Positions 1 through 14,356 of a stretch of 14,819 nt of DNA are shown piece by piece (positions within the stretch are counted from its first letter, which is position 1; every line of letters begins with the position of its first letter). Source of the stretch: an uncultured Candidatus Scalindua sp. (GTDB lineage: Bacteria; Planctomycetota; Brocadiia; Brocadiales; Scalinduaceae); NCBI GenBank assembly GCA_964438395.1, contig CAYTLC010000047.1, positions 1 through 14,819 of the forward strand. Reading direction: 5' to 3'. The position numbers and the translations under genes were made by a program. The notes below the pieces were generated by a model, which did not search any database, was not told the DNA's origin, and saw only the letters and a program-made list of their open reading frames with translations.

Positions 1-1101
1 ATTCTTCCCTGTGCCCATGCAGCCGAATCAACTACAGTGACGGTGGACGGTGTTGGCACATTAATAGGGAATGACAAGGCACGTGCGAGGGATGAGGCAC
101 TCAGAGACGCTTACCGGATGGCACTTGAAAAGGCCGGGGTTAACATGAGCACATATACAGAGATGGTGGACCTTGTCGTAATAAAGGATGTCGTACGCGC
201 AGAAGTATCTGGTCATGTGACGTCCTGGGAGATAGAAGATGAAGGTGTGCGGGGTGACGGTCTCTACTACGTGACCATAACGGCAAAAGTTGTAAAAGCT
301 CCTATTAAGAAAGATGATAAAGAGGCGTTGAGGTTGATTATAAACATGATGGGTAACCCCAGGTTTATCGTATTGATAGACGAGGCGAATAATGGAGAGA
401 AACCACCGTTTTCCACTCTTGAAGCTACGCTGACGGAGACATTGACTGATTATGGATACCACAGCATTGACCCGATACAGCAAAAAATAATTGAAGAGAC
501 AGAAGATGCCAGAAGGGCAATAGGGGGAGATACTAAAGCGGCACAGAAGCTTGCTATGAGAATGCAGGCTGACGTGATAATTACCGGCAAGGTATATACA
601 GAAAAGCTGCCAAAGAATGAGTACTTTAAAGAGACTAACTGGGTATCGAGCAAGGCATACAGTACTGTCCGGGCAGTAATCGCAGAGACGGGTAAGGTAC
701 TGGATGTTGCCAGCCCGGAGAAACCGGGCGCTGGATTGACCTTCAATGATGCAGGGACTAAGGCAATCAAACAGTGCGGACAGAGCCTGGCAGACGATCT
801 TATATGGAACATTCCTCAGCATATAGATGTTTATGACGGAAAAACCATTCAATTGCTGGTAAACGGGATCGAATACTCCGACTACTCTAAGTTGACCGGT
901 GAATTAAGAAACATGAGAAAGGTGACATATGTATTCCCAAGAGGATGGGAAAAAGATCAACCTGCTGTCTACGATGTAAAGACTATGGGTAATGCAGAAG
1001 CTCTGGCAGCAAGGCTTGAAGCTTTCGGTATGGAGATAGTAAGATTCAGTATGAATAAGATAGAGGTGAAAAAGGCTAAAAAGGGTTGGTTTAGTTGGTG
1101 A
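1..1101 (+). CDS. Secreted FlgT-like / LPP20-domain envelope protein; 5' end lies outside the window
   Basis: Frame 1 is open from base 1. The first residues (ILPCAHA|AESTT) look like the tail of a Sec signal peptide with an AxA cleavage site, so the GTG at 37 in the ORF track is probably internal. Stop TGA at 1099-1101. The N-terminal segment (DKARARDEALRDAYRMALEKAGV...DVVRAEVSGHVTSWEI...YYVTITAKV) fits the LPP20/FlgT-N pattern and is clearly paralogous to the N-domain of ORF 2965-3762. The middle segment (RFIVLIDE...ADVIITGKVY...VRAVIAETGKVL) resembles a CsgG/FlgO-type alpha/beta domain. The antisense ORFs inside it are shadows. Confidence 0.75.
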   Translation: MLPCAHAAESTTVTVDGVGTLIGNDKARARDEALRDAYRMALEKAGVNMSTYTEMVDLVVIKDVVRAEVSGHVTSWEIEDEGVRGDGLYYVTITAKVVKAPIKKDDKEALRLIINMMGNPRFIVLIDEANNGEKPPFSTLEATLTETLTDYGYHSIDPIQQKIIEETEDARRAIGGDTKAAQKLAMRMQADVIITGKVYTEKLPKNEYFKETNWVSSKAYSTVRAVIAETGKVLDVASPEKPGAGLTFNDAGTKAIKQCGQSLADDLIWNIPQHIDVYDGKTIQLLVNGIEYSDYSKLTGELRNMRKVTYVFPRGWEKDQPAVYDVKTMGNAEALAARLEAFGMEIVRFSMNKIEVKKAKKGWFSW

Positions 1102-1227
1102 TAGGGAAAGACAAAAGTCTGGATTCACAATCCCAGAATTTCTAAATCCTTAAATCAGTAAAAAATTTGAGTAAATTTGTTGAGTTAGTGTCGTCTTTTT
1201 TATCTTCATTAATCTGTGCCCCGGAAT

Positions 1228-2772
1228 ATGCATATGAAAAGATTATTTGCCCTGACACTGTTATTAGTCATTCTTTGTTCGATGTTCGGTTGTGTTACTG
1301 TGAATATCGTTAAGGATACACACACGGTACCACCACCTCCTCAACAGAAGCAGACGGTTCCTATGTATATGGAAAAGGAATATTCTGCCCCTCAGAAGGT
1401 TGATGCCTCCGAATTTGAGAAAGATATGAAGAGAGGCCGCGATCTTCTGAGCCGAAAACAGTACGGGGAGTCTATCGACTGTTTTAAAGCAATTGCGATA
1501 AGACATCCCAGAGAGACAAAGGTTCAGTACTATATTGCACTTGCCTATGACGAGAGTGGTGATAAGAGAGAGGCTTTACGGGGGTACAAGAGTTTCGTCG
1601 ATATTCAGACAGGTAATGAGGTACTGGTACGGAAGTCCAGGAGCAGGATACGTGTGCTCAAGGACACTATTGCGGAGGAGCTTATCAAGGCGGCAACTGT
1701 ACTTGTAGAGGACCATGAGTATGGAGGTTCTTTTAAGAGGCTTGAAGAGGCGTATGACCTGCGACCATCTCCTGCCACATCAAAGAAAATTGTAGAGCTG
1801 TATGACAGGTATTCAATAAACTCTATAGCCTGGCAGATGTCATCCTTCGGTGATTTGTTATCTGAGAACTCTGTATCTATCGTGCCTTTTACTGATCTGG
1901 CAGGAGAAGGGACCAGGGAGGGGAGTGCCGTTGCGATGGAGCTTAAGAATGAGCTTGTTAATATGGAGGAGTTAGATGTCTATGTTCGCGATGATGCTTC
2001 TCTCAAAGCTATATTGAATGAGGTAGAGTTTGGTGATTCCGGCGCCATTGATGAAAAGACAAGAATAGAGCTGGGCAAACTGGTAAGCACCGGGGCAGTT
2101 ATTACGGGCAGGATCGGTTATGTTGCAGATACATTTAAGATCAATGGATGGATGATAAATGTAGAGACCGGTAAGATAATTACATCCAGGAGCGTCAGTG
2201 TCCTCGGTTGGAATATTGCAGATACGGATAAGTACGCCGATTTCAATATCAAGGTATGGATGGACAGGAAGGAGTACATTATCGGAGATTCGGTGGAGAT
2301 AAATGTACAGACCAACAAGGATTGTTTTGTTACCCTGCTGAACGTTCGCAGTAACGGAGAGATATGGGAGCTGTTCCCCAATAGCTATAATAAGAACAAT
2401 TTCGTAAGGGCAAACACGAGGCACACTATTCCGTCTGGTAATGACAATTTTCGACTGGCCATAGTAGCACCTTCCGGCCAGGATTACATAAAGGCGATAG
2501 CCACCTCAGTACCTATAACCAGAGAGCAGATATCACAGGTACTCTCTGAAGAGAACTCTATCCTGGTATCCCCGGCAGACATCGTCAGGCAGAGAGGAGA
2601 ATCTGCCTTCAGGTCTGTCTCGCCATCAGAGATGAGGGGTCTTCATGAAATCCTGACAAGAGGAGTAGGAGTATTTCCCGATCCGAAAGGCAATCTCAGT
2701 TACAACAATTCCGACTCCGATACCAGGTTTGAGTACGCAGTGAGCACATGGTCGTTTGTGACTAAGAGATGA
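1228..2772 (+). CDS. Probable lipoprotein: TPR-like region + CsgG/FlgO/TolB-N-like periplasmic domain + DUF4384-like C-terminal domain
   Basis: The ORF opens at GTG 1216, with in-frame ATGs at 1228 and 1234. MKRLFALTLLLVILCSMFG|C is a signal peptide with a lipobox-like Cys. TPR-like helices: RGRDLLSRKQYGESIDCFKAIAIRHP...YYIALAYDESGDKREALRGYKSF. CsgG/FlgO-like core: VSIVPFTDLAGEG..GSAVAMELKNELVN...LKAILNEVEFGDSGAIDEKTRIELGKLVSTGAVITGRIGYV...INGWMINVETGKIITSRSV. DUF4384-like: IKVWMDRKEYIIGDSVEINVQTNKDCFVTLLNVRSNGEIWELFPN...HTIP...FRLAIVAPSGQDYIKAIATSVPI. Exact start is uncertain (1216, 1228 or 1234). Confidence 0.8.
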   Translation: MHMKRLFALTLLLVILCSMFGCVTVNIVKDTHTVPPPPQQKQTVPMYMEKEYSAPQKVDASEFEKDMKRGRDLLSRKQYGESIDCFKAIAIRHPRETKVQYYIALAYDESGDKREALRGYKSFVDIQTGNEVLVRKSRSRIRVLKDTIAEELIKAATVLVEDHEYGGSFKRLEEAYDLRPSPATSKKIVELYDRYSINSIAWQMSSFGDLLSENSVSIVPFTDLAGEGTREGSAVAMELKNELVNMEELDVYVRDDASLKAILNEVEFGDSGAIDEKTRIELGKLVSTGAVITGRIGYVADTFKINGWMINVETGKIITSRSVSVLGWNIADTDKYADFNIKVWMDRKEYIIGDSVEINVQTNKDCFVTLLNVRSNGEIWELFPNSYNKNNFVRANTRHTIPSGNDNFRLAIVAPSGQDYIKAIATSVPITREQISQVLSEENSILVSPADIVRQRGESAFRSVSPSEMRGLHEILTRGVGVFPDPKGNLSYNNSDSDTRFEYAVSTWSFVTKR

Positions 2773-2865
2773 TTGAATGCAATTTATTATTGGATCTATC
2801 TGCTTTTCTCTGCGTGAGAACTTTTCTTGCACCAGATCCACTTCCCACAACGATTAATAGGTAAA

Positions 2866-2897
2866 GCACTTAAGTTATTTGGATTAAGTGCGCTTTT
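2866..2897 (+). terminator. Candidate rho-independent terminator after the lipoprotein gene
   Basis: Perfect 8-bp stem GCACTTAA (2866-2873) / TTAAGTGC (2884-2891) with a 10-nt loop, followed by GCTTTTA. It lies 94 nt after the stop at 2772. Confidence 0.5.
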
Positions 2898-2964
2898 ACA
2901 ATAAGTTTCAGATTTTCAAACTCTAAACCCAATTATATTTATTTAAGAAGAAAGGGGTTGTGAT

Positions 2965-3762
2965 ATGTATCTACGGAGACTTAAACTTCTAGTGGTAGTT
3001 ATGCTGTTTGCAGGAATGGCGTTTACCGGTCAAGCCACGCTTAAGGCTGGTGAAAAGGTGTCCAGCGGAAAGGCAAATATTAATATTGGTGGAGGAGAGA
3101 GGGGTACCATTAACTGGGGTACAGAATTTATCACAGCGAAGGGTATTGTTCCGATAACACAGAATGAAGCGCTTGCAAGAAGAGGTGCTATAGTTGATGC
3201 CAACAGGAGATTACTGGAGATAATCAAGGGTGTTCGTATAGATGCCAAGACTGTTATATCCGACCTTATGGAAGTAAATGATGTCGTAAAGCAGGAGGTG
3301 AGCGGAGTGATTACCCATGCTGAGATAGTGAGTGAAAGCCAGAAGAACGGGAATTACATCATAAATATGCGGGTACCTGTGGGGAAATTCATCTCACTCA
3401 TTGTGAAAGACACACAGGTTTCCATACCGGACTTTCCGGCACCCACTAAATATACTGGACTGCTTATAGATGCCAGGGGGCACAATCTGGAGCCTGCAAT
3501 ATTTGTCAGTATATATAATGACAAGGACGGAACAAAGATATGCGGACCGATCCATCCAATATACCGCGTAAGTGTGAAGGGTCTTAGTAGTATCAATGAA
3601 GATCGTCTTGGTGACAATCCACTCAGGATCAAGATTAAGGGAACAACCGGTCCGAGCAATGTTGACATTACATTAAGTAATGGAAGCTCTAAAAAGGTGA
3701 GGAAGAAGATAATGAATACCGGGATATTCTCAAAGAGTAAGGTCATTATCATAATTGACTAG
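2965..3762 (+). CDS. Secreted LPP20/FlgP-like domain protein
   Basis: ATG at 2965 is preceded by AAAGGGG 7 nt upstream. Sec signal peptide MYLRRLKLLVVVMLFAGMAFTGQA|T. LPP20-type N-domain: ITAKGIVPITQNEALARRGAIVDANRRLLEIIKGVRIDAKT...DVVKQEVSGVITHAEI...YIINMRVPV. C-terminal half contains YTGLLIDARGHNLEPAIFVSIYNDKDG..ICG. Paralogous to the N-domain of the first gene. Confidence 0.8.
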   Translation: MYLRRLKLLVVVMLFAGMAFTGQATLKAGEKVSSGKANINIGGGERGTINWGTEFITAKGIVPITQNEALARRGAIVDANRRLLEIIKGVRIDAKTVISDLMEVNDVVKQEVSGVITHAEIVSESQKNGNYIINMRVPVGKFISLIVKDTQVSIPDFPAPTKYTGLLIDARGHNLEPAIFVSIYNDKDGTKICGPIHPIYRVSVKGLSSINEDRLGDNPLRIKIKGTTGPSNVDITLSNGSSKKVRKKIMNTGIFSKSKVIIIID

Positions 3763-3853
3763 ATAACAACCAACCACAGTCGGTTCAATAATCGGAAGAA
3801 GCGTAATGGGGCTGTTGTGGTTAAATGGGGGAGGGGTAAACTAAAAGTAGTAT

Positions 3854-3906
3854 AAAAAAAGGCACAGAGAAATATATTGTTCTTATATATTTCCTGTGCC
3901 TTTTGA
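3854..3906. terminator. Bidirectional rho-independent terminator between convergent genes
   Basis: A7 tract (3854-3860), then the hairpin GGCACAGAGAAATATAT (3861-3877) / ATATATTTCCTGTGCC (3885-3900) with 16 bp, one bulged A and a 7-nt loop, then TTTT (3901-3904). The A-run and T-run flank the stem so it can terminate in both directions. It sits between the stop at 3762 (+) and the stop at 3918 (-). Confidence 0.8.
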
Positions 3907-3917
3907 GTTTAAATGAA

Positions 3918-5381
3918 TTAAACAGCTATGCCCTTGTCTGTCGGTACAGTAACAGCACTGCTCTTGTACCAATCCTTGTAATAGTCGCCTGAATCGTATA
4001 GTAGACGAAGATTTTCCAGCACCTGCTCAAACACTTGTATCCAGTCAGAGCCAACCCTGAACCCAAACATTGCATTACGTTTACCGTGAGTTGTGCTGCC
4101 GATAGTCTGAAGTGATTTTCTAAATCTTAGTCTTATATTGTCACCGGCGTACAGATGGTCATACATATATTGCATGCCTTCAATGAACTCCTCAAGGTTC
4201 ATATCTATGAGTCTATGAACTACATGTGCAGTATCATAATATTTCCAGTCTTCAGGATAGTTCTTTCTGAAAATCCTCTTTTCAGAGTCAAGCCTGTCGT
4301 AAAGCGCAGTCTTAGGAAACGGGCAGTTGATTCCAAAGGTAAGAACATCAATATTGTTTTGCAGTACAAAATCTGTCATCCTTTTGAATGAATCTTTGTC
4401 ATCTCCATCTGCTCCAAGAACTATTGATCCCCAGACAACCAGGCCATGATCGTGAATTTTCTGAACGCTGTCATAATACTTATCAGCACCAATCCTTAAG
4501 TTAGTCGTTTTATTCATCTTTTCCAGAACCGCTTCATTTGTTGATTCTATGCCGCAGAGAAATCCAAAATTTCCACTCTTTGCCATAAGATCAAGCACCT
4601 CTGCATCCTTTGATATATTGAGTGCAGTAAATCCAAGCCAGTCCTTTTTGATGCCCCTGTCTATCATGCCGCGAAAGAGGTCTTTTGCCCTGTTAGCAGA
4701 GTTCTTACTATGTCCATAGAAGTTATCTTCTGCAAACATGAGTCCCTGATAATCAGTTGATTCCATTTCGTCCAGAACATCTTCAAACGGTCTTTCTCTA
4801 TATTTCTTTCCCTGAAAGGTCGGTACGCTGCAGAAATCGCAGTAATTTGGACAACCTTTAGTTGTAACAATTGATGAAAACTTATAATCATATTTCTTCT
4901 TCAGGAGTTCTCTATCCGGAAATACATGTTTCATCTCTGACAGGCCTGGCAGCCCGCCTTCGTACTTCTTTTTGAGTTCGCCTTTTTCAAAATCTTTAAC
5001 GACTTGTGGCCACAATGTTTCGGCCTCTCCGATAAAAATTGCATCCACATGTTGTGAGGCTTCTTCCGGTACTACTGAAGCGTGTATGCCACCCATTACT
5101 ACGGTCATGCCTTTTTCTCTGCAGACCTTAGCTATCTGGTAAGCTCTTGGCACTTGATATGTAACAGAAGTGATACAAACCATATCCACAGGTTCAAATG
5201 TAATATCTCCTTTATCATCCAGAGCCAGTTCAAGATTTTCATCGATTACGTCAAACTCCCAGTCACCAGGTGTAAGGGCTGCTATGTATGCAAGATTTAA
5301 AGGCATTTGAACTATGACAGTTATGCTCTCCTCGCCATGTCTCCCGGGGGGATGTGGATTGATCAGCATCATTTTTCTCAT
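3918..5381 (-). CDS. Cobalamin (B12)-binding-domain radical SAM enzyme
   Basis: 487 aa. The N-terminal B12-binding-type Rossmann segment (MVCITSVTYQVPRAYQIAKVCREKGMTVVMGGIHASVVPEE) is followed by the radical SAM cluster motif TTKGCPNYCDFCS (CxxxCxxC). Strong SD AGGAGGA (5389-5395) sits 7 nt before ATG 5381 and overlaps the upstream gene's stop codon. Confidence 0.9.
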   Translation of the reverse strand: MRKMMLINPHPPGRHGEESITVIVQMPLNLAYIAALTPGDWEFDVIDENLELALDDKGDITFEPVDMVCITSVTYQVPRAYQIAKVCREKGMTVVMGGIHASVVPEEASQHVDAIFIGEAETLWPQVVKDFEKGELKKKYEGGLPGLSEMKHVFPDRELLKKKYDYKFSSIVTTKGCPNYCDFCSVPTFQGKKYRERPFEDVLDEMESTDYQGLMFAEDNFYGHSKNSANRAKDLFRGMIDRGIKKDWLGFTALNISKDAEVLDLMAKSGNFGFLCGIESTNEAVLEKMNKTTNLRIGADKYYDSVQKIHDHGLVVWGSIVLGADGDDKDSFKRMTDFVLQNNIDVLTFGINCPFPKTALYDRLDSEKRIFRKNYPEDWKYYDTAHVVHRLIDMNLEEFIEGMQYMYDHLYAGDNIRLRFRKSLQTIGSTTHGKRNAMFGFRVGSDWIQVFEQVLENLRLLYDSGDYYKDWYKSSAVTVPTDKGIAV

Positions 5382-5393
5382 TTTTTTATCCTC

Positions 5394-6827
5394 CTAATTA
5401 TTTAAAATCATATTGGCCACCCTCCAACCAGAGGATACTACAGCACATATCCCCGGCCCCGGATTAGTCCAGTGCCCGGCCAGAAAAAGATTTTTGAAGG
5501 GTGTTGTGTGTGAAAGTCTATTTGACCACGTCTGGTCTACAGTAACGGCCCAGCCATAGGCTGCGCCTTTTGAGTTGAGTGTGTAACGATATAACGTCTT
5601 CGGTGTGGCAGCGTCAATTACCTCTATATGGTCCTGGATTTCCGGTACAAAATTTTCCAGATAATTTATTGTATGTTTTTTCATTTTATCTTTATATGCA
5701 ACCCAATCGTCTATGTCGTCATAATTATCTCTTGACGAGACAACAACAGAAATTATTTGTTTGTTATCAGGTGCCAGGCTTGGATCAACTTCCGTAGGAA
5801 CGGAAATATAAAACCAGTCGTTACCTGAAAAACTTAAGTCATTTGATGTATGGTAAAAACCTCTTTTAAGGTCTTTTAAGTCTATTTTGTTATCAAGGCC
5901 AAGGTATAGTAAAAAGAAAGAAACACTTTCCTTCATATTCTCAATCTTGCGAAGATAAGAGTCGTCAACGCTGTTTTTGTCTAATAAAGAGAAAAATGTT
6001 TGTTTTGGATCTATGTTTGAGACAAAGATATCAGCCGAAATTTCCCCTCCTTTTTTAGTTGTAACTCCTTTTATAATATTACTATCCGTAAGCAATCCCT
6101 CAACGCTAGAAGATAGCATAATGTGACCGCCATAGTCAATAAATTTTTGGGTTATCGCATCAGCGAAATTCTGGGTACCACCGACAGGGAAATAAGCTCC
6201 ATCTTTTAGATAATTTACCAACATTTGACACATACCAATAGCTGAAACCTCATGAGGAGGGGAACCAATGTATCCCCACTGTGCAGACAGAGTCATCTTG
6301 AGCTGCTCATCTGTAAAAAAATTGTCCAGCATTTCCTTGTAGGTAAGGTTCTGGTATTTGATGAGCATTTTATGCGCTTCAGTGCTGAATGTAGCCCTGT
6401 ATAATCGGGTGAATTCCTTAAAAAATAGTGATAGTTGTTCTCTTTCTGATGGAAACCGTTCCTTCAGCAGATCCACATAATCATCTATTTCGGCAGGTAC
6501 ATCAATGGAAAATGAGGGGAAATGTATGCTGTCCATCGGATCAAGCTGTAGAAAATTAATATTTATGTCAAGCTCTTTAAGGCACCTGCCAACTACACTC
6601 CATTTTCCACACCCACCAATATGATGAACTGCTGAATCGAAAATAAAACCTTTTCTCTTAAAAGAGGTACAATAACCACCGGGGATACTATGTTGTTCAA
6701 TAATCAGCACGCTCTTTCCCTGTTTTGCCAGGAAAGTCCCGCAGATTAGACCGGCAATTCCGGCACCCAGTACAATTGCATCATACTTGGATTTAATTTC
6801 AGATTTGTTCAGGGAGAAATTACTCAT
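5394..6827 (-). CDS. FAD-dependent oxidoreductase, phytoene desaturase (CrtI/CrtD)-like
   Basis: 477 aa. N-terminal dinucleotide-binding motif YDAIVLGAGIAGLICGTFLAKQGKSVLIIEQHSIPGG. C-terminal FAD-contact motif NLFLAGHWTNPGPGICAVVSSG, typical of the CrtI/amine-oxidase superfamily. Lies 19 nt downstream of the KS-like gene. Confidence 0.85.
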   Translation of the reverse strand: MSNFSLNKSEIKSKYDAIVLGAGIAGLICGTFLAKQGKSVLIIEQHSIPGGYCTSFKRKGFIFDSAVHHIGGCGKWSVVGRCLKELDININFLQLDPMDSIHFPSFSIDVPAEIDDYVDLLKERFPSEREQLSLFFKEFTRLYRATFSTEAHKMLIKYQNLTYKEMLDNFFTDEQLKMTLSAQWGYIGSPPHEVSAIGMCQMLVNYLKDGAYFPVGGTQNFADAITQKFIDYGGHIMLSSSVEGLLTDSNIIKGVTTKKGGEISADIFVSNIDPKQTFFSLLDKNSVDDSYLRKIENMKESVSFFLLYLGLDNKIDLKDLKRGFYHTSNDLSFSGNDWFYISVPTEVDPSLAPDNKQIISVVVSSRDNYDDIDDWVAYKDKMKKHTINYLENFVPEIQDHIEVIDAATPKTLYRYTLNSKGAAYGWAVTVDQTWSNRLSHTTPFKNLFLAGHWTNPGPGICAVVSSGWRVANMILNN

Positions 6828-6846
6828 GAAAGATGTCGCTATGAAG

Positions 6847-8079
6847 TTATGAATATTTTGAGATGATTACGGAAGAGATGTTGCCTGTGTCGGAAAAGGA
6901 GTTGACCAGTACATTGTTTACTTCTGCCTCTCTGCTATCGTTAGGTACGCAATCCAGGTTACACTCTTCATCTTTTTCCTGATAGTTTATTGTCGGAGGG
7001 ATTATACCGTTATTGATTGATAATACACCGGCAACACATTGTAATGAACCTGATGCGTCAAGGCACTCTCCTGTCATAGACTTTATAGCACTTACAGGTA
7101 CTTTATCAGCGCTGTCACCAAAGTAGTCTCTAATGATTTTTGCTTCCATCATGTCACCTGTTACGCTGGAATTTGCACATGCGGATATATAAGAAACGTC
7201 TTCTTTGTTAATCCCGGCATCTTCCATTGCCATAGAGATACTCCTTACACCTTGAGTAGTGTTAATATCGTCACGTGAGGTTTTGTCCGGATTAAACGTA
7301 CATCCGTACCCTTTTATCTCGGCATAGATTTTCGCATTTCTCTCCAATGCGTCTTCAAGCCTTTCTATAACAAGTAACGCAGAAGCTTCACCAATTACAA
7401 AGCCGTTACGTCTTTTGTCAAATGGCGCGGAGATTTCAGCAGCATCACTGCTTCCTGACAATACTCCTGAACTGTAAGCACCCCAGAAAATATCACGGGT
7501 TAAACCATGAACTCCACCGGCTAATACAGCTTTTCCTCTACCTAGCTGTAGGAAATCAGAGGCGTAAATGATAGCGTCCAGTCCGCTGGCAGTTCCATTA
7601 GATATTGTAGAATTTAAACCTGTCGCATTGCAGAAAATAGATACTCTGCTTGCCGGTGCATTCAAGACAGTGTTCGGGAATGCCATGGGATTTACGAAAG
7701 TTGGTCCTTCCTGTAATCCTTCCAGGTCGAATGAGCTGATACTATCAATACTTCCATACGTTGACCCGATTACTATTCCAGTTTCTTCGGCACCATAAGT
7801 TTCGTGAGTGATATTAGCATCTTCCATGGCAAGCTTTGCAGAAGAAGATACCAATAGCGATGTTCTGTCAATGTGCCTGATGCCTTTTTTACCCAGGTAT
7901 TCCTTTGGATCAAAATCAGCAATCTCACCCGCTTTTTTGCTTTTGAATTTGGACACGTCAAAAAGGGTGATATCTTTTATTCCTGAGACACCATTCGTCA
8001 AATTGGTCCAGAACTCATCCTTGTTTACACCGATTGGCGATAAAACACTAATTCCTGTTATAACCAGGCGACTATCCAT
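6847..8079 (-). CDS. Ketosynthase-like protein lacking the catalytic Cys-His-His triad (chain-length-factor-like partner subunit)
   Basis: 410 aa with the full-length KAS-II fold (RLVITGISVLSPIGVNKDEFW...; ...PPTINY...CNLDCVPN). In a by-eye alignment to E. coli FabF, the active-site Cys is Thr163 (STISNGTASG; ACT at 7591-7593), the first His is Cys301 (YISACANSS; TGT at 7177-7179), the catalytic Lys is Met310 (GDMME) and the second His is Glu338 (KSMTGECL; GAG at 7066-7068). The ORF is intact with no frameshift. Confidence 0.85.
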   Translation of the reverse strand: MDSRLVITGISVLSPIGVNKDEFWTNLTNGVSGIKDITLFDVSKFKSKKAGEIADFDPKEYLGKKGIRHIDRTSLLVSSSAKLAMEDANITHETYGAEETGIVIGSTYGSIDSISSFDLEGLQEGPTFVNPMAFPNTVLNAPASRVSIFCNATGLNSTISNGTASGLDAIIYASDFLQLGRGKAVLAGGVHGLTRDIFWGAYSSGVLSGSSDAAEISAPFDKRRNGFVIGEASALLVIERLEDALERNAKIYAEIKGYGCTFNPDKTSRDDINTTQGVRSISMAMEDAGINKEDVSYISACANSSVTGDMMEAKIIRDYFGDSADKVPVSAIKSMTGECLDASGSLQCVAGVLSINNGIIPPTINYQEKDEECNLDCVPNDSREAEVNNVLVNSFSDTGNISSVIISKYS

Positions 8080-8128
8080 ATAATTTTAAACCTCTTATTA
8101 TGAAAATAATTTAATAACTGAAAAAATA

Positions 8129-8146
8129 TTAAACGTTTAACGTTAA
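8129..8146. promoter_or_regulatory. Two overlapping perfect palindromes (TTAAACGTTTAA / TTAACGTTAA) in the KS-to-KS-like spacer; candidate protein-binding site
   Basis: A 12-bp palindrome at 8129-8140 and a 10-bp palindrome at 8137-8146 share TTAA, with centres 7 bp apart. They lie within the 81-nt AT-rich gap between the two ketosynthase genes. Function unknown. Confidence 0.3.
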
Positions 8147-8160
8147 CTTGATTTTTGGTA

Positions 8161-9387
8161 TTAGCCGGTAAACCTTTTTAGTATGAGGCTGCTATTGTTA
8201 CCACCAAATGCATATGCGTTATTCATGGCAATATCAACCTGCATTTCACGCTTAACATTAGGTACAAAATCCAGATCGCACTCAGGATCCTTTGTTTCGT
8301 AATTTATAGTTGGAGGCACAACACTCTCTTTAATGGCTAAAGCGCATGCGATTGCCTCTATGGCGCTGGCAGCTCCCATTGTATGTCCAAGCATCGACTT
8401 TATGGAACTTATCGCCAGATTCTTTGCATGTTCTCCAAAGACCCTCTTAATAGATATTGTTTCCGCCTTGTCGTTAGCTACTGTTCCCGTACCATGAGCA
8501 CTCATATACTGAACATCTTCGGGCTTGATTTTTGCACTTTGCAACGCTTTTGTCATAGCCGAAGTAACACCATTTCCCTCCGGATGTGGAATTGTAATGT
8601 GATAACCGTCACAACTAAGTCCATAACCCAGGATCTCGGCATAAATATTTGCGCCTCTAGCCAGTGCACCTTCCATAGATTCTAATACCAGCATTCCGGC
8701 ACCTTCACCAACCAACAGGCCTTTTCTGTTCTTATCAAAAGGTTGGCAAATGTCAGGTGCAATAGCATTTAGCCTGCTAAAACCGACAAATGCTACTTTA
8801 GAAAACGGATCAGAGCCGCCGGCAAGCATTATGTCAGCTCTACCTAATTTTATCAGGTCACATGCATATCCAATAGCATAGTTTCCCGCTGCACATGCAG
8901 TAGGTATTATTGTGCTTGGCCCTTTAAGACCAAATTCAATAGATATGTTAGACGGCATATTGACGCAGGGATGCTGATGGAACAGACCGGGGTCTACGCT
9001 ATCCTCACCCTTCTCATGTCTGATATAGTTTACTTTTTCCAGAATCTGAATTTCACCTGCAGTTGTTCCAATTGAAACACCTGTTCTTTCAGGGTCAGTA
9101 TTGTTCAGGTCAACATTAGAGTCATCGATAGCGAGTTTTGCAGCAGCTATGGCAAATTGTGAACCTTTGCCAATCTCTCGATTTGAACCATTTTTTGTGT
9201 AATCTCCATAATTGAAATCTTTGACTGTACAGCCTCTGTGAACTTTAAAAGGAGAGGTGTCAAATGATGTGATCTCAGATACACCGGATGTGCCTGAGAT
9301 TAATGCATCCCAAAACAGATCTTTTGTGTTTCCAATAGGGGAGATTACACCTAAACCGGTAATTACAATTCTTTTATCTTTATCCAT
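8161..9387 (-). CDS. fabF: Beta-ketoacyl-ACP synthase, KAS II (FabF) family, catalytically complete
   Basis: 408 aa. N-terminus [24 protein letters not shown]. Active-site Cys165 ([14 protein letters not shown]), His298 (YMSAHGTGT), Lys306 (NDKAE), His335 ([11 protein letters not shown]). C-terminus [13 protein letters not shown]. Starts 29 nt after the fabZ stop. Confidence 0.9.
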
Positions 9388-9416
9388 GGTTGATTATTTT
9401 TAAAGTACTAATGCTT

Positions 9417-9866
9417 TTATCCTGTTAATGAATCTTTGTCCGCAACACCAAAGCTCAACGTCGCTTTTGTTACAACTTTGTCTCCCACTTTTGCCACTCC
9501 CTTAACTATTGCCGCACTGGAAATGACCTTTTCAATATCTACTTCCAGAATAAGCTGGTCACCGGGAAATACGGGTTTTGAAAAACGTACGTTTGCGGAA
9601 GCCAACAAGAAGACTTTATCTTTATTCTGCTCGGTATCAAAGCTCTTTTTGAAGAGGATAATCGAGGCTTGCGCCAGAGCTTCTACAATGAGAACCCCAG
9701 GCATTATGGCAAAATCAGGGAAGTGTCCAACGAAGAAAGACTCATTGCCGGAGATGTTTTTCAGGCAAACAATTCTGCTCTCTTTTTGAAGTTCAGTAAC
9801 TTTATCAATAAATAAGAAAGGGTATTTTTGAGGAACCAACTCTCTTACTTCCTCAAAGTTCAACAT
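9417..9866 (-). CDS. fabZ: 3-hydroxyacyl-ACP dehydratase FabZ
   Basis: 149 aa hot-dog fold protein. LVPQKYPFLFIDKV; catalytic His in FFVGHFPDFAIMPGVLIVEALAQ, with the catalytic Glu in VEALAQ; PVFPGDQLILEV. Collinear with E. coli FabZ. Confidence 0.92.
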   Translation of the reverse strand: MLNFEEVRELVPQKYPFLFIDKVTELQKESRIVCLKNISGNESFFVGHFPDFAIMPGVLIVEALAQASIILFKKSFDTEQNKDKVFLLASANVRFSKPVFPGDQLILEVDIEKVISSAAIVKGVAKVGDKVVTKATLSFGVADKDSLTG

Positions 9867-9973
9867 ATAAAATAACCTTTCGTTCTATCGTATATAGTAG
9901 CCACCGCCCATCCACCTTTATCGTTTGTGGATAGGCAAATAGATGATTAAGAAAGCGTAACAAGCTTTATCTA

Positions 9974-10225
9974 TTATCCTTCAAGTGTAGACCTGGTCAT
10001 CTCAATAGTTGCATTCAATGATGTAATGTCTACAAGTTTTTCTTCCGGAATTTGAACCTTAAACTTCTTTTCTATAAGGGCAAGAATTTCCAATGCCAAT
10101 AAGGAATCAATTTCCAGATCCTTAAAAAAATCAGCATCCCTTTTTTCCCATATTTCAGTCTCATCCAGCTCGGTTACTTCAGCAACAATAGCAGTGATAT
10201 CTTTCTCTAAGTTCTCTGCAGACAA
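9974..10225 (-). CDS. acpP: Acyl carrier protein (cluster-dedicated ACP)
   Basis: 83 aa acidic protein with the phosphopantetheine attachment motif DLEIDSLLALEIL (DSL). It uses a TTG start at 10225-10223. GGAGG (10233-10237) lies 7 nt upstream and an in-frame TAG at 10238-10240 blocks any longer ORF. Confidence 0.88.
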   Translation of the reverse strand: MSAENLEKDITAIVAEVTELDETEIWEKRDADFFKDLEIDSLLALEILALIEKKFKVQIPEEKLVDITSLNATIEMTRSTLEG

Positions 10226-10668
10226 TATCTTACCTCCCTAATAAACAACCAGAAATCTAACTATGAACCCAAAACACCAATCAAAAAGCTATTTAAACGG
10301 GTATTTATGAAGTTACATTCTGTAAAAATTATTGATCTAAAAGTATTGATAGTATTTGATTACGATAAAATGAAAATTATCGAAAAGGGAAAAATAACAA
10401 ACTTATATCAATATGTCAATAACAATCTTAGGACAATTTACATTGTTGACAGGTATAGACGATTACTGTTAGGAATAGTATATATTCAATCCAAACTGAT
10501 GGCATTTGAAACCGGTCCGAAAAACGTTGTTAATGAGTGTTTTCCTGGTGTATGTGCAGTAGAGAAGAACGGCGGAATGAAGTCGCGTAGGACTGACAAA
10601 AGTGTATAAGTCTCTAAGGTCACAGGACTTTCTATTATAATTGGTACTAGTTTTTTATTTAAATATAC

Positions 10669-10697: not shown

Positions 10698-10750
10698 TTT
10701 CACTATTATCCTGATATTTTCTATAAAAGCACAAATCAATGAGGAGCAAA

Positions 10751-11518
10751 ATGCGTAGTATTGCGTTCATAAATCAAAAAGGTGGGGTGGGGAAAACAAC
10801 TTCGACCGCAAATGTTGGAGCATGCCTGGCTGCACATGGCAAAAAGGTGCTTATCATAGACCTCGATCCTCAAGCCAACCTGAGTATTCATTTCGGTATT
10901 AATGTCCAGGGAAAAGATTCATCTATTTATGAGATTATGTGCGGTAAGAAGACTGTTAAAGATGTACTAATAAAGACTTCTATTGCTAATCTGGATATTA
11001 TCCCTTCCGACATTGACCTTGCAAGTGCAGAGGTAGAACTCGTTAACACGGTAGGGCGTGAAACAATCGTTAAGTTCTATCTTGAAGGGATGTTAGAAGA
11101 ATATGATTATGTTTTAATTGACTGTCCACCGTCTTTAGGTCTTCTCACTCTGAATGCACTTACTATTGCCAACGAAATTTTTATTCCTCTTCAGACTGAG
11201 TTCTTTGCTCTGCAGGGCGTAAGTAAGCTGATACAAACTTTTGATGTTATCAAGAAACGGCTGAACAGCAAGTTAGAGATCACAGGAATAATACCTTGTA
11301 TGCATGATAGCAGGACAAAGCTGGGGCAGGCAGTGCTTGATAAGATCAAAGAATATTTTTCAGATAAGGTATTTAAAACGACCATTAGAAAAAATATTAA
11401 GCTTTCAGAATCAACAAGTCATGGTGTGCCGGTTACAGTATACGCTCCGGATTCTAATGGCGCTCAAGATTACGAGACGTTAACCAAAGAGATAATGTCC
11501 ATGAAGAAAAAGAAATAG
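10751..11518 (+). CDS. parA: ParA/Soj-family partition ATPase
   Basis: Deviant Walker A with signature Lys (INQKGGVGKTTSTAN), A' motif VLIIDLDPQAN, Walker B YVLIDCPPSLG. The Soj-like C-terminus is APDSNGAQDYETLTKEI. The ORF opens at ATG 10739, but GAGGAG (10741-10746) 4 nt before ATG 10751 favours the second ATG (MRSIAFINQKGG...). Confidence 0.9.
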   Translation: MRSIAFINQKGGVGKTTSTANVGACLAAHGKKVLIIDLDPQANLSIHFGINVQGKDSSIYEIMCGKKTVKDVLIKTSIANLDIIPSDIDLASAEVELVNTVGRETIVKFYLEGMLEEYDYVLIDCPPSLGLLTLNALTIANEIFIPLQTEFFALQGVSKLIQTFDVIKKRLNSKLEITGIIPCMHDSRTKLGQAVLDKIKEYFSDKVFKTTIRKNIKLSESTSHGVPVTVYAPDSNGAQDYETLTKEIMSMKKKK

Positions 11519-11653
11519 CATCCCTGATGGGCGATGCATATATCCAGAGAGCGTGCTTCCCTGTAATACAATTTCAAACCGTAGATTAAACCAACAGTAT
11601 CTGTTTGTAGATTATAGAATTTTGGTGATATTTGTTGCTAAAAGGAAAGATTT

Positions 11654-12301
11654 GTGGCAAAAAAAAATGTACTTGGGTCGGATCCATTTGAGTGGTTAAA
11701 GAAGGATGATAAAGAAGAGGGCACTGAAGATAAGAAGAGCGATATTGGTGCTCAGAAGAAACAGGAAGAGAAACAAGCTGACCCGGTAGTAGCTAAAGAA
11801 GAGACAAGTGTTAAACAGGAAGTTAAACAAGAAGTAAAGCAGGAAGTAGAAAAGGAAGTAAAGAGTGAGGTAAAGAAAGAAGTAAAGAAAGAGGTAAAGA
11901 AGAAAGTAAAGCAGGAAGCGAAAGCATACGAACCTATAGATGTCTCCGCCACAACTAAACCACCGGTCAGCAAGGCTTACGATAAAATAATAGAACCATA
12001 TCTCCAGCAGGAAGAAGAAGCTTTTGAACCCAGTGACATATCAGAGGCAAATCGAAAAGCTGTTTTGGGTAAGGATGTCTATGCTCATCATGCCAAATCT
12101 CGTAAAGCAACACAAAAAGATAGCCCCGCAACTGCATTTGTAATTGTATACACAGTCTTATTGCTGATTCTCGGTTTCATAGTCTATAAAGATCTGACAA
12201 AACAGATTAATAAATTGGAGACGAAGTTGGACCGTGTAGAAAAGAAGCTTGATGAGGGTGTAATAGACTACGAGGATGCAAAACTAGATGGTGAGTGGTG
12301 A
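11654..12301 (+). CDS. Lys/Glu-rich repeat protein with a single TM helix and C-terminal coiled coil; possible ParA partner or adaptor
   Basis: GTG start at 11654 is the only start available: in-frame TAA at 11639-11641 and no Met codon anywhere in the 215 aa. AAGGAAAG lies upstream. The first ~165 aa are highly charged and include nine VK(Q/K)E tetrapeptide repeats. Hydrophobic helix ATAFVIVYTVLLLILGFIVY, then heptad-like KDLTKQINKLETKLDRVEKKLDEG. The protein ends ...KLDGEW. No family recognised. Confidence 0.7.
   Translation: MAKKNVLGSDPFEWLKKDDKEEGTEDKKSDIGAQKKQEEKQADPVVAKEETSVKQEVKQEVKQEVEKEVKSEVKKEVKKEVKKKVKQEAKAYEPIDVSATTKPPVSKAYDKIIEPYLQQEEEAFEPSDISEANRKAVLGKDVYAHHAKSRKATQKDSPATAFVIVYTVLLLILGFIVYKDLTKQINKLETKLDRVEKKLDEGVIDYEDAKLDGEW
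11810..11917 (+). repeat. 9 x 12-bp in-frame tandem repeat (GTWAARSARGAR-like) encoding (V-K/E-x-E)n
   Basis: Units in order: gttaaacaggaa, gttaaacaagaa, gtaaagcaggaa, gtagaaaaggaa, gtaaagagtgag, gtaaagaaagaa, gtaaagaaagag, gtaaagaagaaa, gtaaagcaggaa. They are contiguous from 11810 to 11917. Confidence 0.9.
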
Positions 12302-13092
12302 TTCATAATAGTATGTTCAACCTTAAACTTTTTTTCACGTCCATTATCCAATAATAGTTTCAACTCTCCGATATTAGAAATTCCCAGAAAAATTCCTGTA
12401 TACTCTTTATTGGCATTACGAACGTTGACCCTTCTTCCTATGTTCACACAGAACTCCTGCCACTTCTCCACAATATATTCGTAGCGTTCATCCTTTAATA
12501 TTAAGTACCACGAATCCAGATTTTGCAGCAGTGCCTTTGCAAAATTGGTGCGATCTATAAATGTCTCTTTTTCAATAGCAAGAGATGTTGCCGGTTGACC
12601 AATATGTTCAGGAAATTCATGCTTCTTTGAATTGACATTTATTCCAATTCCTACAATATAGTCTCTTAACTGTTCTGTATGGTCCTGTGTCTCTACAATT
12701 ATTCCACCCAATTTCTTGTTATTAATTACAAGGTCATTAGGCCAGTCGATATCAACAGGTAATTGGAACATGTCCCTTATGGTTTGTACGATAGCTACTG
12801 CAGTAATAACCATCAGAAGATACGAATTCTCCGGTTGGATTACAGGCCTTAAGACAACAGTCAGTAACAGGCCTTTTCCGCTCTTGCAATACCACTCTTT
12901 CCCTGACCGTCCTCTTCCCTGGGTCTGCTCTTCAACAAAGATAGTGGTTCCCTCAATAGCACCCTCTTTGAGCATCTTCTTTGCAATGTCCATTGTAGAT
13001 TCGGTACGTTCAAGCGTAACTATCTCCCTGCCTATAATATCTGTACGCAGGTTATCTTTAATCTTGTCAGCAGATAAGCGAACGTGTTTCAT
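12268..13092 (-). CDS. birA: Biotin--[acetyl-CoA-carboxylase] ligase, class I (no N-terminal HTH)
   Basis: 274 aa. Biotin-binding loop EEQTQGRGRSGKEWYCKSGKGLLLTVVLRP (GRGRxGxxW), then KWPNDL-like WPNDLVINNKKLGGIIVE and GIGINVN. The N-terminus goes straight into the catalytic domain. The last 34 nt overlap the convergent gene ending at 12301. Confidence 0.88.
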   Translation of the reverse strand: MKHVRLSADKIKDNLRTDIIGREIVTLERTESTMDIAKKMLKEGAIEGTTIFVEEQTQGRGRSGKEWYCKSGKGLLLTVVLRPVIQPENSYLLMVITAVAIVQTIRDMFQLPVDIDWPNDLVINNKKLGGIIVETQDHTEQLRDYIVGIGINVNSKKHEFPEHIGQPATSLAIEKETFIDRTNFAKALLQNLDSWYLILKDERYEYIVEKWQEFCVNIGRRVNVRNANKEYTGIFLGISNIGELKLLLDNGREKKFKVEHTIMNHHSPSSFASS

Positions 13093-13150
13093 CTGTTTTC
13101 TGGGAAGAATTTAATTGAGAATCTGAAGATTTTGCTTTGACGGCAGATAC

Positions 13151-14176: not shown

Positions 14177-14356
14177 ATTGATATCCCGGATATTTAGTAA
14201 GAAAGTTAAAGTCTGGTGCTTATATGGCTGGTCAAGTGTGCCTTTTCCTGCCACTCGTATAACAGCTTGATATAACGTCACACCTTATACCAGAATGGCA
14301 AAAAGCTTTCAACTGTTTTCTGTCAGTTCAGATGGAGTTGGCGATAGTGTGAAAAT

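Follow-up and report, generated by a model that had tools for sequence, protein, structure and literature searches.

What does a six-gene operon produce that places a dedicated carrier protein, a dehydratase and two ketosynthases (KS) next to a phytoene-desaturase-like flavoenzyme and a cobalamin-domain radical SAM enzyme, and is the product linked to ladderane lipids? The operon lies in the window (the whole stretch of 14,819 nucleotides that was analysed; GC content 41%), which derives from Candidatus Scalindua. An earlier note on this DNA had guessed an anammox origin, and the guess was correct: the closest loci are those of Candidatus Scalindua MAGs, with 84-99% protein identity. At the closest one (L052) each protein is 95-99% identical; the window comes from another Scalindua species or strain. 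Six minus-strand ORFs occupy positions 3918-10225, and the features of the locus, in the direction of transcription, are:

10391..10419, minus strand: predicted sigma-70-type promoter (-35 TTGACA, 17-nt spacer, extended -10 TGtTATTTT).
10226..10384, minus strand: putative 5′ untranslated leader, its extent deduced from the promoter position.
9974..10225, minus strand: amxACP, dedicated acyl carrier protein, 83 aa (PF00550, 52 bits; Ser of the IDSL motif; TTG start).
9417..9866, minus strand: amxFabZ, 3-hydroxyacyl-ACP dehydratase variant, 149 aa (FabA-like domain).
8161..9387, minus strand: amxFabF2, active KAS-II-type ketosynthase, 408 aa (both ketoacyl-synthase domains).
6847..8079, minus strand: amxFabFmut, dead KS paralogue, chain-length-factor-like partner, 410 aa (both KS domains).
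5394..6827, minus strand: CrtI-family (phytoene-dehydrogenase-like) FAD enzyme, 477 aa (Amino_oxidase and NAD_binding_8; kuste3607 orthologue).
3918..5381, minus strand: class B (cobalamin-binding domain) radical SAM enzyme, 487 aa (PF02310 and PF04055 above cut-offs; kuste3608 orthologue).
3851..3904, minus strand: intrinsic terminator, a 20-bp interrupted hairpin (stem 3857-3904) followed by a U-run.

The gaps between the six genes, calculated from the coordinates, are 107, 29, 81, 19 and 12 nt from the ACP to the radical SAM gene. They agree with the layout given in the earlier note, as does the 513-bp divergent intergenic region, which extends up to a ParA-like gene at 10739. The predicted promoter is located ~165 nt upstream of the ACP start, and was the top promoter-like site of the scan (10 of 12 matches, with the TG). 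The promoter block is 84-92% identical even among divergent Scalinduaceae, and in an 11-locus alignment the -35 and -10 hexamers are invariant while their flanks diverge. A GGAGG ribosome-binding site is found 8 nt upstream of the TTG start of the ACP, and the final ~37 nt of the leader are conserved across Scalindua; no Rfam family matched the leader. The strong terminator that had been claimed was also observed: it folds with -24.2 kcal/mol (z = -8.37 relative to shuffles; none of 200 shuffles folded as well), its stem is formed by inverted repeats I1 and I2, and the hairpin is partly conserved at other Scalindua loci. The inverted repeats and folding revealed it, and a simple pattern scan did not pick it up. 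Because the promoter is conserved, the gaps measure only 12-107 nt and a terminator follows, the operon is a single promoter-to-terminator transcription unit.

Pfam and NCBIfam agreed with the earlier domain calls for all six proteins, and the motifs IDSL (ACP), GHFP...VEALAQ (FabZ) and CPNYCDFC (radical SAM) were found. The domain search detected no ketoreductase, enoyl reductase, acyltransferase, thioesterase or PPTase among the operon's six genes, as had been noted. The top PDB match of amxACP was 7qv0_D (E = 1e-43), which is the ACP in the entry for the S. brodae amxFabZ-amxACP complex, with 3 differences over 81 aligned residues; its identity to the Brocadia, Kuenenia and Jettenia orthologues is 77-82%. 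For amxFabZ the top matches were 8ayi and 7qv0_A (S. brodae amxFabZ), with 10 differences over 148 residues, so that the two window proteins share 93-96% identity with their crystallised S. brodae counterparts. In amxFabZ, I69, S96 and I115, published as diagnostic, are all present, together with the catalytic H48 and E62, and the protein scored 152 bits with TIGR01750, slightly under the 155-bit cut-off.

The earlier note had also read the two ketosynthases as a complete KAS-II enzyme and a paralogue without catalytic residues, and this was borne out. In amxFabF2 the C165/H298/K330/H335 set is intact, and its top PDB match was 9s5h_B of the B. fulgida amxFabF heterodimer (676 bits vs 371 for B. 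subtilis FabF). In amxFabFmut, whose top match was 9s5h_C (583 bits), the C/H/K/H positions are occupied by Thr/Cys/Lys/Glu: all three triad residues are lost and the Lys is kept, and this Thr/Cys/Glu pattern agrees with a preprint's description of Scalindua. Classical chain length factors differ in carrying Gln at the active-site position, where the window's dead KS has Thr (Val in Brocadia).

Since the crystallised amxACP, amxFabZ, amxFabF2 and amxFabFmut are the top PDB matches, the diagnostic amxFabZ residues and the dead triad are present, and the six-gene order is conserved, the operon is the Candidatus Scalindua orthologue of Kuenenia kuste3603-3608, named Cluster I by Dietl 2023 and Granatino 2026. 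Non-orthology is excluded by the present data. Genes, order and orientation are those of Cluster I in K. stuttgartiensis and of its S. brodae and B. fulgida orthologues (7qv0, 8ayi, 9s5h, 9s5i); the FabZ I69/S96/I115 residues, the Scalindua-type dead-KS Thr/Cys/Glu and the host genus are shared, and there is no difference of substance. The conserved promoter and the terminator are additionally defined here, for the window. The comparison with Brocadiales genomes that the earlier note had proposed revealed the six-gene order in all anammox genera sampled, at every one of ~50 loci on long enough contigs; the genes flanking the operon are conserved within Scalindua only. Such an arrangement is far from what chance would give. 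The operon, collinear with kuste3603-3608, corresponds to the candidate ladderane locus of Rattray et al. 2009, as the earlier note had proposed. In itself the Scalindua operon is already known and well studied in the field, and nothing about it is new.

Some steps have been shown experimentally with orthologues. An amxFabZ orthologue dehydrates (3R)-3-hydroxyacyl chains only on amxACP, with a strong preference for chains up to C8. A 2026 preprint reports that the amxFabF orthologues pair as a heterodimer, which decarboxylates malonyl-amxACP and produces acetoacetyl-amxACP. This gives experimental ground to the proposal of a type II KS/CLF-style module; C6-C8 chains were favoured in crosslinking assays. 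Cluster I is highly expressed in Kuenenia, it is expressed in situ by Scalindua, and reviews up to 2026 treat it as the consensus ladderane candidate. As the earlier note also stated, heterologous expression yielded no ladderanes: Javidpour 2016 detected every one of the six kuste3603-3608 proteins in E. coli under anaerobic conditions, and the fatty acid profile was unchanged.

The operon is best explained as encoding a small carrier-protein-centred assembly line, apart from housekeeping fatty acid synthesis. Our main reading, with a probability of roughly 0.62, is that this Scalindua Cluster I orthologue, transcribed as one unit, likely makes a ladderane building block by the following steps. 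The chain would be held on amxACP, as shown experimentally for the orthologue. The KS/dead-KS heterodimer would decarboxylate malonyl-amxACP, as its orthologues do in experiments, and so prime itself. Malonyl loading, phosphopantetheinylation and ketoreduction would be borrowed from genes elsewhere. Because no cassette relative encodes a FAS-type enoyl reductase, the chains delivered would probably be short and unsaturated (enoyl- or dienoyl-ACP intermediates), not saturated. Their unsaturation pattern may then be altered through desaturation or isomerisation by the CrtI-family flavoenzyme, and the class B radical SAM enzyme may abstract a hydrogen atom from the tethered chain, leading to a new C-C bond by ring closure or coupling. 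According to Dietl et al., published isotope labelling of the ladderane part is at odds with simple polyene-cyclisation and with stepwise schemes. Polyenes have not been detected in anammox bacteria.

The flavoenzyme scored 165 bits with TIGR02734 (crtI_fam; cut-off 238 bits), and its nearest solved structures are CrtI 4dgk (E = 4e-24) and 4rep. Of the six proteins it is the one that varies most: the Scalindua version is 57-62% identical to those of Brocadia, Kuenenia and Jettenia. A role as phytoene desaturase was rejected, since kuste3607 fails to complement crtI.

Known systems resemble parts of this assembly line. The ishigamide Iga11/Iga12 and aryl-polyene Ape systems, like the window, place an active KS beside an inactive paralogue, with a discrete ACP and a FabZ/ApeI-like dehydratase and without an enoyl reductase; unlike the window, they have neither a CrtI-like flavoenzyme nor a cobalamin radical SAM enzyme. 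According to the preprint, the ishigamide polyene ketosynthase Iga11 is the closest structural homologue of amxFabF2. The cispentacin-type system also combines a discrete ACP (AmcB), a KS-like pair (with the KS-like subunit AmcF) and a FabZ-fold enzyme acting on short chains (AmcE, a FabZ-like cyclising decarboxylase). Its NCBIfam models matched the window proteins below their cut-offs of 140, 325 and 80 bits for AmcE, AmcF and AmcB, respectively (AmcE vs FabZ, 95 bits; AmcF vs KS, 235 bits; AmcB vs ACP). The Amc system builds a five-membered ring. It differs from the window in lacking a radical SAM or CrtI-like enzyme, and the window's FabZ has an orthologue that is an experimentally verified dehydratase.

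The cassette is not confined to anammox bacteria, since very similar operons are present in unrelated soil bacteria. At least eight non-anammox high-GC loci (L056, L062, L065, L066, L067, L071, L072 and L076) were found to have all six genes in identical order. The few with a source label belong to Acidobacteriota or Planctomycetota, and no locus of the set is from a cultured organism. Their proteins are 35-58% identical to those of the window, their GC content is 55-70% vs 41%, and their flanking genes are unrelated. At each locus a KS with a complete triad is paired with a dead one, and the dehydratases, which also match the ApeI-like and ApeP-like Pfam families, carry a bulky residue 69, a non-basic 96 and a hydrophobic 115, the residue types held to be anammox-specific. 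No FAS-type enoyl reductase was present in any non-anammox cassette examined, and in most a FabG-type reductase follows directly after the radical SAM gene or lies further downstream. Additional genes extend some of the cassettes: one or two more modules of radical SAM, KS and dead KS, an enoyl-CoA hydratase, and others. A paralogous anammox module encodes an enoyl-CoA hydratase and a FadH/OYE-family oxidoreductase, a family that includes 2,4-dienoyl-CoA reductase. The FabG-type ketoreductase, the likeness to Iga11 and this module further suggest a polyenoyl product.

These cassettes bear most directly on the alternative that anammox and non-anammox hosts use the operon for a specialised acyl unit other than a ladderane (for example a starter or lipid tail that is short and polyenoyl, cyclised or modified in some other way), and that the cyclobutane rings come from other genes, e.g. 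the large kuste3335-3352 cluster or other loci. The collinear high-GC loci with the same diagnostic residues speak for it, as does the report of Rattray et al. 2009 that similar clusters occur in Desulfotalea, which has no ladderanes; that report partly anticipated our distribution result. That amxFabZ and amxFabFhet prefer short chains is in keeping with their making no more than the C6-C8 linear part. However, no anammox genus examined lacks the cluster, its expression is high, and for the non-anammox cassettes a non-ladderane product is no better supported than a ladderane one. Furthermore, the anammox versions form a tight subfamily of their own (radical SAM enzymes: at least 67% identity among themselves vs 53-60% to outsiders), so a lineage-specific change of product may have occurred. 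We consider this alternative possible, at odds of about one in four.

The radical SAM enzyme itself raises a second, rather improbable alternative: that it is a cobalamin-dependent C-methyltransferase. The operon would then yield methyl-branched acyl chains whose saturation the flavoenzyme adjusts, and no rings would form. Its C177-x3-C181-x2-C184 motif is complete and its AlphaFold model has a pLDDT of 93.4, but no feature of sequence or model tells a cyclase from a methylase. The majority of characterised class B enzymes are methyltransferases, and NCBI names the Kuenenia orthologue a bacteriochlorophyllide methyltransferase. Four of the nearest solved folds (MgmA, TokK, TsrM and CysS) are methylases, CysS and TokK acting on pantetheine-linked substrates, and among the best-scoring NCBIfam models are those for P-methyltransferases and for the hopanoid C-3 methylase HpnR. 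Anammox bacteria also contain methyl-branched fatty acids, e.g. 10-methylhexadecanoic acid. These similarities are all remote, however (12-20% identity, scores 4- to 8-fold under family cut-offs; 83 bits vs a 360-bit cut-off for TIGR04072, outside which the enzyme falls), and the neighbours include the non-methylating AprD4 and OxsB and, by profile, BchE and HpnJ. With OxsB, BchE, HpnJ and the proposed archaeal GDGT ring synthases the enzyme shares an N-terminal cobalamin-type Rossmann domain and a CxxxCxxC radical SAM barrel, and the role proposed here is alike: under anoxia, to form a C-C bond or close a ring on an unreactive carbon chain. Identity to this non-methylating group is equally low, with family scores far under cut-offs. 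The field lists the kuste3608-type enzyme among the non-methylating members, as a proposal only; heterologous production of this family has so far given insoluble protein or none. Moreover, mid-chain methylation of a C16 acid needs no dedicated self-priming KS/CLF, ACP or up-to-C8 dehydratase. The enzyme is second to the ACP in cross-genus conservation (76-79%), and at the loci compared it is always accompanied by the KS and dead-KS couple, with which it recurs as a three-gene unit.

A redundant copy of housekeeping FAS II, with two extra genes adjoining by chance, is refuted by the conserved gene order and by the ACP specificity known from the literature. Four of the six proteins are from ordinary FAS II families, but the six-gene order is kept across anammox genera and other phyla while flanks change, one KS has lost its catalytic triad, amxFabZ rejects the canonical ACP of its host, and canonical FabF, FabZ and ACP genes sit elsewhere in anammox genomes.

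What is new here is the distribution: collinear cassettes occur outside anammox bacteria. As to the phyletic profiling that the earlier note had suggested, the six-gene set is present in every anammox genus examined and in these outsiders as well. Because no ladderanes are known from the non-anammox hosts, the phyletic case for a ladderane-specific role is weaker than published, and the published uniqueness of the cluster to ladderane producers is weakened. For the anammox bacteria, the most likely product of the assembly line is still a building block of ladderane lipids, an assignment made purely by association.

The ORF listing agreed exactly with the six minus-strand genes, and their coordinates, that an earlier note had proposed from the sequence, and the domain identity given there for each gene was supported by both Pfam and NCBIfam.

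Features of the operon and its boundaries (genes from the ORF listing with Pfam and NCBIfam support; terminator from repeat finding and folding)
10391-10419, minus strand, predicted sigma-70-type promoter (TTGACA-17 nt-TGtTATTTT), ~165 nt upstream of the ACP start
9974-10225, minus strand, acyl carrier protein (ACP)
9417-9866, minus strand, FabZ dehydratase
8161-9387, minus strand, intact ketosynthase (KS)
6847-8079, minus strand, second, KS-like gene
5394-6827, minus strand, CrtI-like flavoenzyme
3918-5381, minus strand, B12-domain radical SAM enzyme (rSAM)
3857-3904 (3851-3904 including the U-run), minus strand, interrupted 20-bp terminator hairpin followed by a U-run

The intergenic gaps within the operon are of 107, 29, 81, 19 and 12 nt, and a 513-bp divergent intergenic region lies upstream. 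The predicted promoter is almost invariant in Scalinduaceae while the neighbouring non-coding DNA diverges, and its position would imply a leader of ~160 nt. An Rfam scan of the whole window returned no element, and hence no riboswitch in the 513-bp region. The terminator said to bound the operon is real (-24.2 kcal/mol, z = -8.4), although a scan for the consensus terminator pattern detected none 3′ of the rSAM gene and the hairpin was found by direct repeat finding and folding. The conserved promoter, together with the terminator, indicates that the operon has its own conserved transcription signals. The 107-nt spacer between the ACP and FabZ genes (9867-9973, minus strand) holds an 11-bp GC-rich hairpin with no U-tract; a role in attenuation or processing was not supported, since the region scored z = -1.24 relative to shuffled sequences.

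The window ACP found its best PDB match in S. brodae amxACP (7qv0_D; 3 differences in 81 aligned residues), and the window FabZ in S. brodae amxFabZ (8ayi). In amxFabZ the diagnostic residues are Ile69 replacing Gly, Ser/Thr96 replacing Lys/Arg and Val/Ile115 replacing Arg/Lys. The window FabZ carries I69, S96 and I115 and, like the ACP, is of the anammox-specific variant, but such residues alone do not define an anammox origin, because homologous loci from other bacteria have them too. The two KSs best matched 9s5h_B and 9s5h_C, the chains of the B. fulgida amxFabF heterodimer. In the alignment, the first KS keeps C165, H298, K330 and H335, and the second has Thr, Cys, Lys and Glu at these positions, the triad loss that marks the inactive KS of the anammox operons. 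A predicted active KS gene therefore lies next to that of a predicted inactive paralogue, as in a KS/chain-length-factor (CLF) pair. In classical type II polyketide synthases the CLF has a Gln at the position of the active-site Cys of the KS ('KSQ'). The window dead KS differs in having a Thr there, and those of Brocadia, Kuenenia and Jettenia in having a Val. According to a 2026 preprint, the Thr is specific to Scalindua, with which the window sequence agrees.

Biochemical work on orthologues bears directly on this pair. Neither FabF paralogue is active by itself. As a KS/CLF-like heterodimer, physically demonstrated for the Kuenenia and Brocadia proteins only, the two decarboxylate malonyl-amxACP and produce acetoacetyl-amxACP, with a preference for C6-C8 probes. 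The orthologous amxFabZ dehydrates 3-hydroxyacyl chains on amxACP only, with a strong preference up to C8. These experiments, and the active and dead triads seen here, vindicate the idea of a type II KS/CLF-style system. We conclude that the window pair probably functions in a KS/CLF-like manner but belongs to a distinct lineage that is nearer to FabF.

In the literature, Cluster I is defined as Kuenenia stuttgartiensis kuste3603-3608, which encode amxACP, amxFabZ, amxFabF2, amxFabFmut, a PDH-like protein and a B12-rSAM. The window operon has the same six collinear, same-strand genes, and its nearest loci are in Candidatus Scalindua MAGs (84-99% identity, with shared flanks), which places it in an anammox (Brocadiales) host. 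The window has a GC content of 41%, and since no hydrazine synthase gene lies within it, the host assignment rests on near-identity to the named MAGs. A genome scan with the window CrtI-like protein as query, taking one genome per species, returned 55 loci, of which all but one were labelled as anammox-lineage or as generic Planctomycetota/uncultured; in the Candidatus Scalindua loci the protein was 73-97% identical to that of the window. The six-gene order was kept in every sufficiently long locus from Scalindua, Brocadia, Kuenenia, Jettenia and Anammoxibacter, and the flanking genes (ParA-like, BirA and Zn-ADH) were common to the Scalindua loci only. The one exception by label, a contig from a Thermodesulfobacteriota MAG (L001, CAXMPV010000082.1), carries the Scalindua operon and flanks with 87-96% protein identity for the conserved genes, and is almost certainly mis-binned.

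We conclude that: i) the operon is a member of the known Cluster I, and ii) the window operon as such is already known and adds one more orthologue. The gene order of Cluster I, the best PDB matches and the Scalindua relatives all support the earlier reading of the operon as an anammox candidate ladderane locus. The literature given with that reading was also represented accurately: when all six Kuenenia genes were expressed in anaerobic E. coli, every protein was detected and no new fatty acids were formed.

The flanks were also inspected. Between the ParA-like gene and BirA, an ORF at 11654-12301 (plus strand) encodes a Lys/Glu-rich protein without a Pfam match, with a 12-nt tandem repeat (KQEV/KKEV, ~9 copies) at 11813-11918 and a hydrophobic C-terminal stretch. 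It is poorly conserved in Scalindua (37-93% identity; 58% for the L001 copy), and 34 nt at its 3′ end are shared with the convergent BirA gene. BirA and the Zn-dependent MDR alcohol dehydrogenase (12268-14281, minus strand) lie upstream on the operon strand, with synteny confined to Scalindua; although BirA bears on malonyl-CoA supply, a functional link to the operon is unsupported. Beyond the operon terminator, three same-strand genes at 37-3762 (plus strand) code for putative secreted or lipoprotein-like proteins with weak FlgT_N-like matches and a DUF4384 domain. Of the loci fetched, essentially only the closest Scalindua locus (L052) has this neighbourhood too, and locus L010 gave weak matches (26-32%) to two of the three genes.

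The flavoenzyme scored above the cut-offs for the Amino_oxidase and NAD_binding_8 domains but below that of TIGR02734 (crtI_fam; 165.1 versus 238.1 bits), and is CrtI-like without belonging to that family. Its nearest solved relatives are CrtI (4dgk, the closest, E = 4e-24) and a gamma-carotene desaturase. When kuste3607, its Kuenenia orthologue, replaced crtI in E. coli, lycopene formation was not restored. A literature search gave no support to a partnership, in cinnamoyl-lipid pathways, between CrtI-like enzymes and polyene synthases of the KS/CLF type.

The rSAM has the radical SAM barrel motif and an N-terminal B12-binding Rossmann domain, as expected of class B enzymes (PF04055, 55 bits; PF02310, 38.8 bits; both above cut-offs), and C177, C181 and C184 of its CxxxCxxC motif are invariant in 47 homologues. 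Its predicted model (pLDDT 93.4) adopts the class B fold, with TM scores of 0.58-0.69 to solved class B enzymes. A PDB sequence search gave remote matches only, and the nearest solved structures, AprD4 (top), MgmA, TokK, TsrM, CysS and OxsB, share only 12-20% identity with it. AprD4, which is not known to use cobalamin, has the same domain architecture, and the fold alone is therefore no proof of cobalamin use. In a search of 1.8 billion representative proteins, all relatives of at least 50% identity fell on one representative (666 bits) and the next was at 417 bits and 45% identity; by these scores the family is sharply bounded. Membership of TIGR04072 ('rSAM_ladder_B12', lipid biosynthesis B12-binding/radical SAM protein) was rejected (83 bits against a cut-off of 360 bits), and rSAMs from paralogous loci and additional modules (58-76 bits) are non-members as well. 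The family of kuste3608, the Kuenenia orthologue, thus differs from the one that NCBI named after ladderanes. The public name of the Kuenenia orthologue of 3918-5381 (P0011), 'putative bacteriochlorophyllide d C-12(1)-methyltransferase', is similarity-based and unsupported, and the organism makes no bacteriochlorophyll. In reviews up to August and September 2026 the rSAM is still listed as the proposed, uncharacterised ring-forming enzyme; the anammox protein is insoluble and in vitro reconstitution has so far failed.

The tight rSAM family extends beyond anammox bacteria. All six genes, in unchanged order, were found in a soil Acidobacteria MAG (L056, GC 60%, with glycoside hydrolase genes in its flanks), in a Planctomycetota MAG (L062, GC 57%) and in six metagenome contigs (L065, L066, L067, L071, L072 and L076, GC 55-70%); additional cassette fragments end at contig edges. 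The proteins of these non-anammox cassettes are 35-58% identical to those of the window, and the Acidobacteria flavoenzyme is, beyond its own group, most closely related to the anammox Cluster I enzymes. Their ACPs are clearly amxACP-like, and each cassette has one intact and one dead KS. The features supposed to be anammox-specific recur in their dehydratases: position 69 is Ile/Leu, position 96 is non-basic and position 115 is hydrophobic. In most of them a FabG-type ketoreductase gene follows the rSAM gene, directly or a few genes downstream, and none encodes a FAS-type enoyl reductase. No cultured carrier was present among the named matches. Partial cassettes also occur, with the rSAM alone (L063) or with the rSAM, KS and dead KS only (L058 and L060). 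At L068 (8610-11395, GC 41%) only the pair of CrtI-like and rSAM genes was found, the rSAM being 67% identical to that of the window, and ACP, FabZ and KS genes were absent upstream. Either the cluster is split at this locus, or a Brocadiales relative employs the pair differently.

Beyond the six-gene core, rSAM homologues lie beside a KS and a dead KS at L058 and L060, in the second half of L062, in the extensions of L065 and L067, and at L064, an anammox paralogous locus that matches kuste2802-2805. Judged by gene order, 'B12-rSAM + KS + dead KS' appears to be a reusable three-gene unit. Additional modules adjoin the core in some non-anammox clusters, and in anammox genomes an equivalent module is at a separate locus. 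On the anammox metagenome contig L064 (10001-16966, GC 38%), genes for a PPTase, a B12-rSAM, a KS, a dead KS, a FadH/OYE-family Fe-S flavoenzyme and an enoyl-CoA hydratase were identified. Its B12-rSAM is 51% identical to that of the window, and its dead KS shows the F/N/K/E pattern that Rattray tabulated for Kuste2805. Since the family of its oxidoreductase includes 2,4-dienoyl-CoA reductase, this locus gives a hint of dienoyl intermediates. In the large non-anammox superclusters L065 (4101-21437) and L067 (644-17085), one or two additional B12-rSAMs come after the core, with further KS/dead-KS pairs and an enoyl-CoA hydratase. The other genes after the core are, for L065, an SDR, a ferredoxin and a muconolactone-isomerase-like gene and, for L067, a Zn-ADH, an aminotransferase and an AMP-binding enzyme. 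L065 also has FGE-sulfatase-like and polyketide-cyclase-like genes inserted between the dehydratase and the KS. The dead KS of the additional L067 module (L067_d, 11471-12727) is the only one among the additional modules with a Gln at the active-site Cys position, as in a classical CLF.

Work on the orthologues has demonstrated a dedicated ACP, a heterodimer that primes itself by decarboxylating malonyl-ACP, short-chain elongation and dehydration by amxFabZ. We propose that anammox bacteria would borrow ketoreduction, for which other hosts would have a gene in the cassette itself, and that, with no enoyl reduction, short enoyl- or dienoyl-ACP intermediates would accumulate. The flavoenzyme may then alter the unsaturation pattern of the chain, and the class B rSAM may act on the tethered chain by radical C-C chemistry. 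The leading hypothesis, by association only, is that ladderane synthesis draws on the product. To this mechanism and the ladderane link taken together we assign a probability of about 0.6.

In the main rival explanation, every host of the cassette uses it to produce a shared, non-ladderane unit. Conservation of the six genes and of their order in anammox and non-anammox hosts alike would be compatible with such a unit. On the other side, the anammox rSAMs, at least 67% identical to each other versus 53-60% to outsiders, form their own subfamily, and a neighbour-joining tree of rSAM homologues, computed without support values, sets the anammox Cluster I clade apart from the kuste2803-type paralogues and from the non-anammox groups, but identifies neither a sister group of the anammox clade among the latter nor a direction of transfer; a lineage-specific product in anammox bacteria is thus possible. 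We regard the common-unit explanation as unlikely. That the rSAM is simply a methylase is improbable: methylases are among its structural neighbours, but so are a diol dehydratase and a ring-contracting enzyme, and from such a mixture no reaction can be transferred.

A wider reading of the comparison can also be considered, on which we are evenly balanced. Cluster I would represent the anammox lineage of a six-gene cassette dispersed by horizontal transfer (ACP, restricted-pocket dehydratase, KS/dead-KS pair, CrtI-like enzyme and class B rSAM, usually then FabG) that is present in Acidobacteriota, non-anammox Planctomycetota and other high-GC bacteria, and is not unique to ladderane producers. 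Its rSAM + KS + dead-KS module could be stacked two or three times, with kuste2802-2805-like modules beside the core in some non-anammox clusters.

Rattray et al. (2009) described similar clusters as 'rare but not unique', with Desulfotalea, Geobacter and Pelobacter as examples, and found no ladderanes in Desulfotalea; 'ladderane-type' calls by antiSMASH in many phyla are a known curiosity. In later structural papers Cluster I is 'encountered exclusively' in, or 'unique to', ladderane producers. The loci found here are closer, fully collinear and carry the diagnostic residues; hence they take the 2009 observation further, in contradiction to the later wording.

The biosynthesis of ladderanes, lipids with fused cyclobutane rings, has been a standing problem in lipid biochemistry since 2002, and the Cluster I operon is the field's main suspect. 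Collinear relatives in unrelated bacteria undercut the 'unique to ladderane producers' argument for this candidate, and the comparative result points to a modular rSAM + KS/CLF logic. If the wider reading is correct, that logic would be iterative, to elongate and then modify by radical chemistry. Either ladderane-related cyclised or radical-modified lipids would have gone undetected outside anammox bacteria, or the cassette would provide a generic precursor and the ladder-forming step would lie elsewhere. In either case the non-anammox homologues, which offer alternatives with their own ketoreductase for in vitro reconstitution, would be new starting points, and possibly easier ones to express, for a problem that has lasted 20 years.
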